Positions 2,389 through 11,150 of a stretch of DNA of 64,000 nucleotides are shown one piece after another. Origin of the DNA: a virus. The stretch lies in the IMG/VR virus record IMGVR_UViG_2939786809_000002, positions 3,141 to 67,140 of that record. The stretch is one strand, 5' to 3'. Position 1 is the first letter of the stretch. Each line of letters begins with the position of its first letter. The notes under the pieces were generated by a model. That model did not search any database. It saw only the letters and a program-made list of their open reading frames with translations, and had not been told where the DNA came from. Made by a program: the position numbers and the translations under genes.

Positions 2389-3494
2389 TGCGTGCCACCG
2401 CCCCCCAGCCGGAGCTGGCGGCAGCCCTGAAGGGGGTTGCCCGCCAGATCCCGGCCAAGCCCCTTCAGCCCGCCCTCCTCGGGGTGCGACTCGAAGCCAC
2501 CGACGGCCAGATCCGGGTGAGCGCCTGGGACGGCGCGACCGCGGCTCACGCCCACGTAGACGCCGATGTCGACGAGCCCGGCGTGATCATTGCGCCTGGC
2601 CAGATGCTCGCCGACGTCATCGGCAGCCTCGCCAAGGCGGACGTTGCGCTGGAGGCCCGCGAGGAGCTCCACGTCCACACCGACCGGGCGGAGTTCTTCC
2701 TCCCGACATCATCCGCCCACGACTACCCGACGCTGCCTGCCCTGCCCGACACCCAGGGCACTGTCGACGGGGCCGAGTTCGGGGCCGCATACAAGCGGAT
2801 CAAGGCCGCCATCAGTCGTGACGCGCAGGGCCCCACCGTCGGAATGCGTGGGGTTCGGATCGTCGTCGACGACGGCGAAATGCAGCTGGCGGCCACCGAT
2901 CGGTACCGCATCGCCATCGCCTACCTCCCATGGCAGGGCGACACCATCAGTCCGGCCATGGGCGTCGTCCCCGGCAAAGTGCTCGCCGACAACGCCGCAG
3001 TGTTCACCGGCAAGCTGCGCGTCGGACTCCCGGCCAACGGGTCCGGGGTCGCCGCGCTGATCGGGGACAGGCAGTTCGTGTCCACCACGCTCATGGACTG
3101 GGGGACGTTCCCGCCGGCTCTGGACTCCGTCATTCCGAACGGTGACGCGATCACCGGCACCCTCATCGTCGCCGCCGAGGATCTCAAGGCTGCCGTTGAG
3201 TCCGCCACGGCGGTCGGTGTACCCAGGCACATCTTCCTGACCATCACCGGCGACCGCATCGCAGTCCGCGGCGAGGGCGAGGGTCGCAGCCGGCTGCAGG
3301 TCGACGCCAGCTACGACGGCGACCTCGACAGCATCGAGCTGAGGGTCAACCCGCTCTACCTGCTGGATGCGATCAACCAGTTCACGGGGCCCATCCACTT
3401 CGAGCTGACGACCCCGACCAGGCCCTTCCTGCTCCACCAGCCCGACGACACCACCTACCGGCACGTCGTCATGCCGCTCCAGCCACTCAGCTGA
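2388..3494 (+). CDS. dnaN: DNA polymerase III beta sliding clamp, phage-encoded
   Basis: 368 aa with DnaN hallmarks: LLGVRLEA, DYPTLP, AATDRYRIA, VNPLYLLDA, C-terminal VVMP. Confidence 0.88.
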   Translation: MRATAPQPELAAALKGVARQIPAKPLQPALLGVRLEATDGQIRVSAWDGATAAHAHVDADVDEPGVIIAPGQMLADVIGSLAKADVALEAREELHVHTDRAEFFLPTSSAHDYPTLPALPDTQGTVDGAEFGAAYKRIKAAISRDAQGPTVGMRGVRIVVDDGEMQLAATDRYRIAIAYLPWQGDTISPAMGVVPGKVLADNAAVFTGKLRVGLPANGSGVAALIGDRQFVSTTLMDWGTFPPALDSVIPNGDAITGTLIVAAEDLKAAVESATAVGVPRHIFLTITGDRIAVRGEGEGRSRLQVDASYDGDLDSIELRVNPLYLLDAINQFTGPIHFELTTPTRPFLLHQPDDTTYRHVVMPLQPLS

Positions 3495-9555: not shown

Positions 9556-9693
9556 CCTTTAAAGAAGTGTGGCAGAGTAGACCCCAGGAACGCCAGACCT
9601 AGCCGACTGCGGATCACGAAAGAAGAGGCCCACAAGGGCCTGGTTCCGTGCGCCCACTCGGCCCCCGCCACCCGTTCCGCGAGAGGGATCGAA

Positions 9694-10137
9694 ATGACCA
9701 TCGCCGACGACCTGAACCTCATCGGAAACGACCAGCTGAAACGGCGTGTACGCGCCGCCGAATCCGTCGCCTGGCAGGCACTCAACATCACCCCCAACCC
9801 CGGCGAGACCGCCACCGAAGTCCTCGCCCGCATCCGCTACTCCGCCGAGCGCGACCACCCCGAACTGATCCTCCGGCGTGAGCACAGCCGCCAGGAGATC
9901 CTCCCCATCGCCGACGACTGCGGCTGCGACCCGAACAGCGACGGCTACGACGACGACCACTGCGAATCCGGCGAAGCAGGCGAGTACCTGTGTGCCCGCC
10001 GCCACCTCGGCTGGGTCTGCGGCACCTGCATCAATAAGGGCGACGACGGCCCCAGCTGGCGACCCGACCGCTACGAGTGGCCCTGCCCCACCGTGACCGC
10101 CCTCGACGTCGGCGATTCACAGGACGGCAAGCGATGA
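9694..10137 (+). CDS. Cys-rich hypothetical protein
   Basis: RBS gagggg-like; MTIADDLNLIG...CGC...C...C..C...WPC; ATGA-coupled to the methyltransferase. Confidence 0.65.
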   Translation: MTIADDLNLIGNDQLKRRVRAAESVAWQALNITPNPGETATEVLARIRYSAERDHPELILRREHSRQEILPIADDCGCDPNSDGYDDDHCESGEAGEYLCARRHLGWVCGTCINKGDDGPSWRPDRYEWPCPTVTALDVGDSQDGKR

Positions 10138-11150
10138 CCAACCTCAGCCTCTGCTCCGGCTACGGCGGACTTGATCTTGCCGTCGAGCAGATCACCGGCA
10201 ACAAGACCCTCGTCTACGCGGAAAGCGACCCCTACGCCTCCGAGGTCATGGCCGCCCGCTTCCCGTGGGCCGTCAACCTCGGCGACATCAAGACGGCCGA
10301 CTGGGCCGGTCTCGCCCATAACAACACCTTCACCACCATCACCGCCGGCTTCCCGTGCCAGGACATCTCCTCGGCCGGCCGCAGGAAAGGAATCACCGGT
10401 GCCCGCTCGGGAATCTGGAAAAACGTCGCTCAAGCTGTGGGCGTCATTCGACCGCGCTACGTCTTCCTGGAAAATGTGGCGGCCATCAAAGCGCGCGGCC
10501 TCGACGTCGTCATCGCCGACCTGGCCCAAATCGGGTATGACGCGCGCTGGACATGTCTACGAGCTGGCGACCCCGCGGTCGGCAACCCGACGCCGCGCGA
10601 CCGGTGGCTCTGCATCGCCTATCCCGCTGCTCAAGACCCCGACAGCGCAGCTTGGCGTGAACGGTGGGCCACAGCACCCGGACAAGCGGAAAGCGGGCGG
10701 GCACGGGCCGACCTTGGAGGACGAAGTGGTGTTCCTGCTTCCGACACCAACGGCACGGCTGGGCGACTCGACCTCGCGGGGAGCGGACCCCGCCCGGTAC
10801 AAGGGGCCGAAGTCACTGAACGGCAGGCGCAGCAACCTGGACGACTGCGTGGCGGCAGTGGAGGCGAAGTCCCCCTGGCTTGGGGTGCTTTTGAACCCGC
10901 CATCCGACGCTGGGAAGCCGTCATCGGGCGCCCCGCACCCGCCCCTACGGAGCCCGGGATCCGAGGAAACCGCCGCCTGACGCCGCTCTTCGTCGAGTGG
11001 CTTATGGGCTGCGACGAGGGATGGGTCACCGACCTCGACCTGCCACGGAACAAGCAGCTGAAGATCCTCGGCAACGGCGTAGTCACCCGCCAGGCCGTCG
11101 AAGGCTACCGCCGGCTGCTGTGCGCCGACATTGAGGCGATGACCGCGTGA
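10134..11150 (+). CDS. orphan DNA (cytosine-5) methyltransferase
   Basis: Motif I LCSGYGGLD, motif IV AGFPCQ, motif VI ENV, motif IX/X-like VEWLMG...LGNGVV; no cognate endonuclease adjacent. Confidence 0.9.
   Translation: MTNLSLCSGYGGLDLAVEQITGNKTLVYAESDPYASEVMAARFPWAVNLGDIKTADWAGLAHNNTFTTITAGFPCQDISSAGRRKGITGARSGIWKNVAQAVGVIRPRYVFLENVAAIKARGLDVVIADLAQIGYDARWTCLRAGDPAVGNPTPRDRWLCIAYPAAQDPDSAAWRERWATAPGQAESGRARADLGGRSGVPASDTNGTAGRLDLAGSGPRPVQGAEVTERQAQQPGRLRGGSGGEVPLAWGAFEPAIRRWEAVIGRPAPAPTEPGIRGNRRLTPLFVEWLMGCDEGWVTDLDLPRNKQLKILGNGVVTRQAVEGYRRLLCADIEAMTA
10537..10980 (+). CDS. nested out-of-frame ORF inside the methyltransferase (LL[K/P]TPT repeat protein)
   Basis: Alternative frame stays open from 10171; MTRAGHVYEL...LLKTPTAQLGVNGGPQHPDKRKAGGHGPTLEDEVVFLLPTPTA looks protein-like. 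Confidence 0.55.
   Translation: MTRAGHVYELATPRSATRRRATGGSASPIPLLKTPTAQLGVNGGPQHPDKRKAGGHGPTLEDEVVFLLPTPTARLGDSTSRGADPARYKGPKSLNGRRSNLDDCVAAVEAKSPWLGVLLNPPSDAGKPSSGAPHPPLRSPGSEETAA

Follow-up and report, generated by a model that had tools for sequence, protein, structure and literature searches.

The multispecific C5 DNA methyltransferases (C5-MTases) of Bacillus phages (SPR, phi3T and rho11s types) carry tandem, exchangeable target-recognition domains (TRDs) between motifs VIII and IX, all within one polypeptide and one reading frame. The present analysis deals with a C5-MTase gene and a reading frame nested within it, both located in a 64,000-nt stretch of viral DNA, in the following called the window (IMG/VR record IMGVR_UViG_2939786809_000002, positions 3,141 to 67,140), which is part of a 77.9-kb Streptomyces provirus record with a GC content of ~68%. 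The closest described systems are two C5-MTases made of two chains. M.EcoHK31I (E. coli HK31, YGGCCR; Lee, Kam and Shaw, 1995) is described as a two-polypeptide enzyme that needs both polypeptides for activity and whose beta polypeptide is encoded wholly within the alpha gene in another frame; alpha comprises motifs I–VIII, motif X and the predicted TRD, beta contains motif IX only, and about 42 N-terminal residues of beta are needed for the association (PMC2836561, PMC3404938). In M.AquI (Agmenellum quadruplicatum, CYCGRG; Karreman and de Waard, 1990), motifs I–VIII are assigned to alpha and the distal variable region together with motifs IX–X to beta (PMC3404938). M.AquI likewise depends on both of its chains, and monomeric C5-MTases can be divided into fragments that complement one another (PMC2836561, PMC3404938).

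The comparison of the locus with its relatives makes it likely that two same-strand overlapping genes encode one phage "orphan" C5-MTase as two polypeptides, alpha (frame A) and beta (frame B), with beta acting in trans as the recognition subunit. Alpha would form the catalytic core consisting of motifs I–VIII, a disordered linker that would be merely the other-frame reading of the beta modules, and motifs IX–X. Beta probably starts at GTG 10399 behind a Shine-Dalgarno sequence of its own and would end at TGA 10980; it would be composed of a conserved leader, encoded over alpha motifs V–VIII, and of two modules headed by an LLxTPT motif in the position of a TRD. By way of its leader beta would dock on alpha and supply the sequence recognition, and the alpha-beta holoenzyme would methylate the phage DNA against host restriction.

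All features of the locus are collected in Table 1. Alpha encodes motifs I–VIII, a linker and motifs IX–X, all in frame A. The Pfam match (PF00145) covers residues 1–170 of alpha only (E 2.4e-31), and PHROG methyltransferase families align to it end to end. Among 45 homologues the catalytic residues P74-C75, E113-N114-V115, R155 and R157 are invariant, and the AlphaFold2 model of alpha obtained with these 45 homologues reaches pLDDT values >90 at residues 1–165 and 250–330, while the values drop below 50 at residues 180–244, i.e., the part overlapping the modules. The best Foldseek matches of the model are M.HhaI (E 3.5e-14) and M.HaeIII. The frame-A linker between motifs VIII and IX is predicted to be disordered. 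Moreover, its protein identity between relatives is only 43–47%, and the conserved modules of this interval belong to frame B, so that alpha presents no folded TRD between motifs VIII and IX. A preliminary description of this DNA, made from the letters only, had reported a methyltransferase frame with motifs I–X and a segment between motifs VIII and IX that reads as low-complexity shadow sequence; the mapped motifs, the composition of the linker, its low pLDDT and its low identity bear out both statements.

Table 1. Features of the methyltransferase locus in the window (window coordinates; frame B is +1 relative to frame A).
Feature	Position	Strand	Remarks
Alpha gene (frame A), C5 DNA methyltransferase core	10134..11150	+	ATG 10134 to TGA 11150, 338 aa
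Motif I, LCSGYGGLDLA	10149-10181	+	frame A
Motif IV, GFPCQDIS	10347-10370	+	frame A
Shine-Dalgarno-like sequence AGGAAAGGA	10383..10391	+	7 nt before GTG 10399; encodes R-K-G in frame A
Putative beta gene (frame B), nested polypeptide	10399..10980	+	GTG 10399 (probable start) to TGA 10978-10980, up to 193 aa
Zone constrained in both frames	10447..10566	+	frozen synonymous sites of frame A
Motif VI, ENV	10470-10478	+	frame A
Motif VIII, RDRWLCIA	10593-10619	+	frame A
Frame-A reading of the overlap ("shadow" linker)	10620..10880	+	alpha residues about 163-249; G/A/R/P-rich, low-complexity, unconserved as protein
Frame-B module 1, LLKTPTAQLG...HPDKRKAGGHGPTLEDEV	10627..10728	+	tblastn matches to annotated phage DNA methylase genes
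Frame-B module 2, LLPTPTARLGD...NLDDCVAAV	10735..10860	+	frame-B codon periodicity
C5 run	10871..10875	+	frame-B homology ends here, frame-A homology (WGAFEPAIRRWE) resumes
Motif IX, RLTPLFVEWLMGCDEGW	10974-11024	+	frame A
Motif X, LGNGVV	11067-11084	+	frame A

Frame B had been described as free of stops from 10171 to 10980, and it is open even from 10138; the open reading frame (ORF) listed for it runs from TTG 10171 to 10980 (269 aa). At a GC content of 68% this openness is uninformative, since alternative-frame ORFs of 130–500 aa are common in the same 4.5 kb, and it was dropped as evidence of coding. The significance of frame B derives from homology, from codon periodicity and from the comparison across loci. 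In tblastn searches the frame-B segment finds genes annotated as DNA methylases in phages of Streptomyces, Arthrobacter and Propionibacterium, the E-values going down to 4e-16. The beta product is matched by 624 predicted proteins in public data; of the 120 matches listed, a few bear the name cytosine methyltransferase, and nearly all lack a Pfam domain and are unnamed or "hypothetical". Against Pfam, PHROGs and PDB sequences the frame-B product gave no match, and its neighbours in the ESM Atlas are unnamed virus and Actinomycetota clusters only. The repeated LL(K/P)TPT motif that had been noted in the nested reading is present, with LLKTPTAQ at 10627 and LLPTPTAR at 10735, and heads both module 1 (LLKTPTAQ...EDEV) and module 2.

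For the comparison 52 viral loci were sampled via the frame-B segment, and 160 viral and bacterial loci were added via the catalytic domain. In module 1 the differences between 44 unique loci are distributed over frame-B codon positions 1/2/3 as 4705/2528/15034, and the protein identity averages 85% in frame B compared to 47% in frame A. The same holds for module 2, in which the differences from loci L005 and L013 amount to 15/5/54 at frame-B codon positions 1/2/3 and the protein identity is 92–95% in frame B compared to 43–46% in frame A. From these patterns we consider it close to certain that frame B is a protein-coding gene under purifying selection. Moreover, module 1 outdoes the adjoining catalytic domain in conservation, the latter being only 37–75% identical between loci: for L005, L034 and L049, module 1 is 70–86% identical to that of the window at the protein level, whereas the catalytic domains are only 37–40% identical. 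The module types recur in varying order, combination and number, forming arrays of 1 to 8 modules. That the modules are better conserved than the catalytic domain suggests that they are exchanged between enzymes, i.e., that they behave as cassettes moving from one enzyme to another.

The selection acting on frame B extends upstream of the modules. In the doubly constrained zone, frame A reads as motifs V/VI to VII (IRPRYVFLENV...DLAQIGYDARW) and frame B as the beta leader (FD..S.SWK...TWPKSGMTRAGHVYEL), and over alpha motifs V–VIII the full leader reads FD..S.SWK...TWPKSGM..G.VYEL. In a codon alignment of 117 unique loci the diversity at fourfold sites of frame A is typically 0.5–0.6. Within the zone it drops to 0.08 at residue 127 (CTC in 67/70), 0.0 at A131 (GCC in 79/79), 0.05 at residue 133 (xTC in 36/37), 0.02 at G134 (GGG in 96/97), 0.13 at L112 (CTG in 41/44) and 0.23 at R106 (CGA in 76/87). 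Likewise, the codon of Y135 is TAT in 36/44 loci, compared to 20% TAT elsewhere in the methylase genes; GGG, CGA and TAT are unpreferred codons at ~68% GC. Every frozen base is the base that frame B requires for the leader residues S, P, S, G, M, W and D, and at several leader positions the residue read in frame B varies less than the one that frame A reads from the same codons. Protein-level selection is shown for both frames, A and B. In the loci of low GC content, furthermore, the last stop in the +1 frame is always found before alpha residue 120. The preliminary description had called the gene dual-coding and had proposed to compare dN/dS in both frames across homologs: frame B is conserved at 85–95% and frame A at 43–47%, the differences follow the frame-B codon positions, and the purifying selection on frame B, the conserved layout and the in-frame modules of a few relatives (see below) all speak for dual coding.

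It had further been proposed that the nested polypeptide is read from ATG 10537, and in this point the description needs correction. The frame-B residues W-P-K-S-G lie just before this codon and are held by frozen frame-A sites, placing the beginning of the nested coding region upstream of 10537. Because ATG 10537 also lacks a Shine-Dalgarno sequence, it is unlikely as the sole beta start and is probably an internal or alternative methionine. GTG 10399 is probably the start of beta. The duplex of its upstream region with the 3' end of the 16S rRNA was calculated at -10.4 kcal/mol, compared to -6.5 for the start of alpha, -4.5 on average for the background, and -11.0 for GTG 12402, which we take to be the start of a DnaB-like helicase ORF. 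An ATG or GTG is present at the frame-B position of GTG 10399 in most Streptomyces-phage relatives and in 33/96 family members.

The layout was counted over 148 unique loci from phages and bacterial genomes in which motifs I–VIII (N) and motifs IX–X (C) could both be placed; a C. difficile plasmid locus (L217), which is an ordinary single-frame C5-MTase of another subfamily, was left out. Relative to N, modules of the LLPTP type are found 315 times in frame +1, 84 times in frame 0 and 6 times in frame +2. Fifty-one of the 148 loci are built like the window, with C sharing the frame of N and every module in +1. Another 48 are split, N stopping after motif VIII and the modules together with C lying in +1, and in 27 loci the first module is in +1 and further modules are in frame 0. 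At most three of the 148 loci appear purely single-frame. In six relatives (L099, L114, L115, L168, L218, L219) the +1 ORF comprises the modules and motif IX, motif X being in frame 0, and in phiBT1, Samora and Lilbooboo it contains motifs IX–X, the two ORFs overlapping by 32 nt. Since motif IX or motifs IX–X are carried by the +1 ORF in these relatives, this ORF is tied to the enzyme as a part of it. Similarly, fused forms hold module 1 (L020/L140 and L118) or several modules (L157) in frame between motifs VIII and IX, which ties the modules to the enzyme. One base added at the C5 run of the window would, as we deduce, bring motifs IX–X into the beta frame and produce the split layout of the phiBT1 type. 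By this comparison the nested layout is conserved over phages and bacteria of several phyla, and within the sampled family it is the rule and mostly unannotated. As an example, gp4 of Gordonia phage JKSyngboy is a window-type locus annotated as a single gene, the long frame-A ORF, so that the nested gene is overlooked. The original record of phiBT1 (L004, AJ550940; 1961–2542) annotates no more than the N-terminal ORF gp9.1, for which it notes "DNA methylase may be inactive"; the +1 ORF, containing two modules and motifs IX–X, is open, conserved and unannotated there.

Several explanations of a conserved second frame have to be weighed against a two-polypeptide enzyme. Frame A and frame B might be joined by recoding, i.e., by a +1 shift after motif VIII and a -1 shift after the modules, or by editing through transcript slippage, to give one chain of motifs I–VIII, modules and motifs IX–X. 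A chain joined in this way would resemble those of the fused forms L020 and L118, nearly all loci have an offset of +1, and the C5 run is situated at the second junction. However, two shifts would be needed, and frame A of the window contains neither an X XXY YYZ slippery heptamer nor a base run longer than five, which also leaves the earlier suggestion that a frameshift could swap specificity domains unsupported. Among 115 junctions no common shift site was found, the sequence being variable and motif VIII being separated from the first +1 module by anything from 4 to 88 nt. Furthermore, the selection on frame B reaches ~60 codons upstream of motif VIII, where a ribosome shifting after motif VIII would still be in frame A. 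The relatives of low GC content are most informative in this respect. In 13 loci of 42–49% GC with C in frame 0, there are zero frame-0 stops between motifs VIII and IX (58–215 codons), compared to 0–3 mostly terminal stops in +1 and 3–14 stops in +2; in four low-GC loci with C in +1, frame 0 has 3–16 stops over the same interval. Frame 0 is thus kept open only where it has to reach motifs IX–X, as would be expected of two polypeptides but not of a double frameshift. The comparison therefore favours two polypeptides over frameshifting, and we regard recoding as highly improbable. Alternatively, the gene might be decayed: an ancestral single-chain methylase would have suffered two compensating 1-nt indels, leaving a dead enzyme in which frame B is a remnant of the former TRD. 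The record note on the phiBT1 homologue gp9.1 points in this direction, and so do the extra indels that break the pattern in the metagenomic loci L009, L010 and L015 and the stop contained in a module of L106. A relic, however, would lose its frame-B periodicity and its identity of 85–95% between loci whose catalytic domains are only 37–75% identical, it would not hold both frames open in genomes of 42–49% GC, and it would not freeze synonymous sites of alpha for a beta leader; in addition, the catalytic residues of alpha are all intact. Decay of the gene is thus very unlikely.

Frame B might also be a real gene with a separate function, for example in regulation, in anti-restriction or in the inhibition of alpha, with alpha working or failing alone. 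This is unlikely, albeit with some points in its favour, as the role of beta is deduced for a product with neither a Pfam family nor a solved relative, some eukaryotic C5-MTases use short recognition loops, and DNMT3 chains are among the structural matches of alpha. The +1 ORF of relatives carrying motif IX or IX–X of the methylase fold, the modules located between motifs VIII and IX in the fused forms, and the frame-A protein with nothing folded at the TRD position argue against it. For the assignment of beta as recognition subunit of a two-polypeptide C5-MTase, several points weigh on the other side. The recognition role of the modules is read from their position between motifs VIII and IX, and the AlphaFold2 model of the fused relative L118, calculated with an alignment built from fragments, has a mean pLDDT of 63 and is too poor to place the module. 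We infer the translation of beta and the alpha-beta complex from comparison alone, and no experimental precedent was found for a TRD supplied in trans. The beta start is not fixed, as no start codon is universal across the family; candidates are an ATG at the GYD codons (55%), a start at residue 89 (34%) and a TTG before the first module (41%). The loci are phylogenetically related and the counts overstate the number of independent events. Finally, the literature on M.EcoHK31I places the TRD in alpha and not in beta (PMC2836561, PMC3404938). We lean, with only slightly better than even confidence, towards the wider generalization that nested beta is the true DNA-recognition subunit of a very large, cross-phylum C5-MTase family of phages and mobile elements. 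Specificity would then reside in a cassette acting in trans, whose short LLPTP-headed modules are shuffled from enzyme to enzyme, and ~60 codons would encode two conserved proteins, alpha motifs V–VIII in one frame and the docking leader of beta in the other. If beta has this role throughout the family, the published assignment of the TRD to M.EcoHK31I alpha would need re-examination.

The methyltransferase gene is present as a single copy in the whole provirus record and is placed in the replication module, with an initiator-like gene and GTG 12402 downstream. Its start codon shares bases with the stop codon of the upstream gene (ATGA, 10134–10137), suggesting translational coupling of the upstream gene and the methylase. 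This upstream gene (window 9680–10137, + strand) has a Cys-rich C-terminal part (CGCDP...C.SGEAGEYLC...WVCGTC) that may bind zinc.

Some observations were made on individual relatives. In the fused forms a leader-like stretch follows motif VIII in frame (LPPSGSMASGV... in L157:2441-2600; MPSGTGPVETGVLE in L020:2431-2500), and in nested genes the leader overlies motifs VII–VIII. An origin of the fused forms via duplication of the motif VII–VIII region was considered and found unsupported, the -1 reading of the L157 leader being without the GYD..W motif. Among metagenomic variants an extra 1-nt indel breaks the catalytic frame in L009 and L010 and fuses motif VIII to a module in L015, and in the Megaera locus L106 a stop is located within the last +1 module; these four copies may be decaying, or they may represent assembly errors. 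In the C. difficile plasmid locus L217 (30% GC) the +1 frame is open for 155 codons (2101-2565), beginning ahead of motif IV and ending shortly after motif VIII, and its end, SLLDILEDEV.EKYFLS, resembles what we take to be the start of a canonical TRD. The open +1 frame of L217 may be due to chance, or C5-MTase genes may share this property more widely.

If beta is translated and required, the ~580 nt nested here would be among the longer same-strand gene overlaps of prokaryotes and phages with selection on both frames. Most sampled genes of the family would then carry a wrong annotation, being listed either as one "DNA methyltransferase" whose middle part makes no sense or as "possibly inactive", and the enzyme would represent a natural split methyltransferase whose recognition function is a separate, modular chain. 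This would help to explain how phages retarget their self-methylation against host restriction, and it would offer a scaffold for engineered targeted methylation, for which M.EcoHK31I has already been used (PMC2836561). Moreover, assignments of methylomes to genes in actinophages and prophages, as well as REBASE-style predictions, need to take the +1 ORF into account.

Compared with known systems, the locus shares with the SPR, phi3T and rho11s methylases a phage self-protection enzyme in which motifs VIII and IX enclose tandem, exchangeable recognition units, in the present family 1 to 8 presumed modules. In these Bacillus phage enzymes, however, the TRDs are in the same polypeptide and frame, and their sequences are unrelated to the modules as far as compared. 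The annotated "DNA methylase" pairs of actinophages (e.g., Samora 34/35, Lilbooboo 32/33, KBurrousTX 79/80, Polka14 74/75) belong to the same family and show the same +1 offset after motif VIII, with module 1 being 54–87% identical to that of the window over the tblastn-aligned stretches. In these pairs frame A stops, and for this reason the second ORF has been annotated, whereas only the frame-A ORF is annotated in window-type loci. In the literature covered by the search, no account of a family-wide nested layout or of the LLPTPT motif was found. Judged by the published description, the window resembles M.EcoHK31I in that frame B (10399–10980) is nested in the other frame within 10134–11150, and the N-terminal association region of M.EcoHK31I beta fits a docking leader of the window's putative beta. 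Unlike M.EcoHK31I alpha, the alpha of the window holds all ten motifs (I–VIII, IX and X) and its beta would hold the presumed recognition modules; the six relatives in which motif IX joins the modules in the +1 ORF and motif X stays in frame 0 (see above) come closer to the M.EcoHK31I partition. A tblastn search with one related beta (L219) against plasmids gave no Escherichia match. M.AquI is a natural two-chain enzyme divided inside the variable region, and its partition is that of the phiBT1, Samora and Lilbooboo relatives with their +1 overlap, but the alpha of the window regains motifs IX–X in its own frame and beta is nested instead of being a downstream overlapping gene. Thus, as judged from their reading frames, the relatives of the window realise both published partitions, that of M.EcoHK31I and that of M.AquI.

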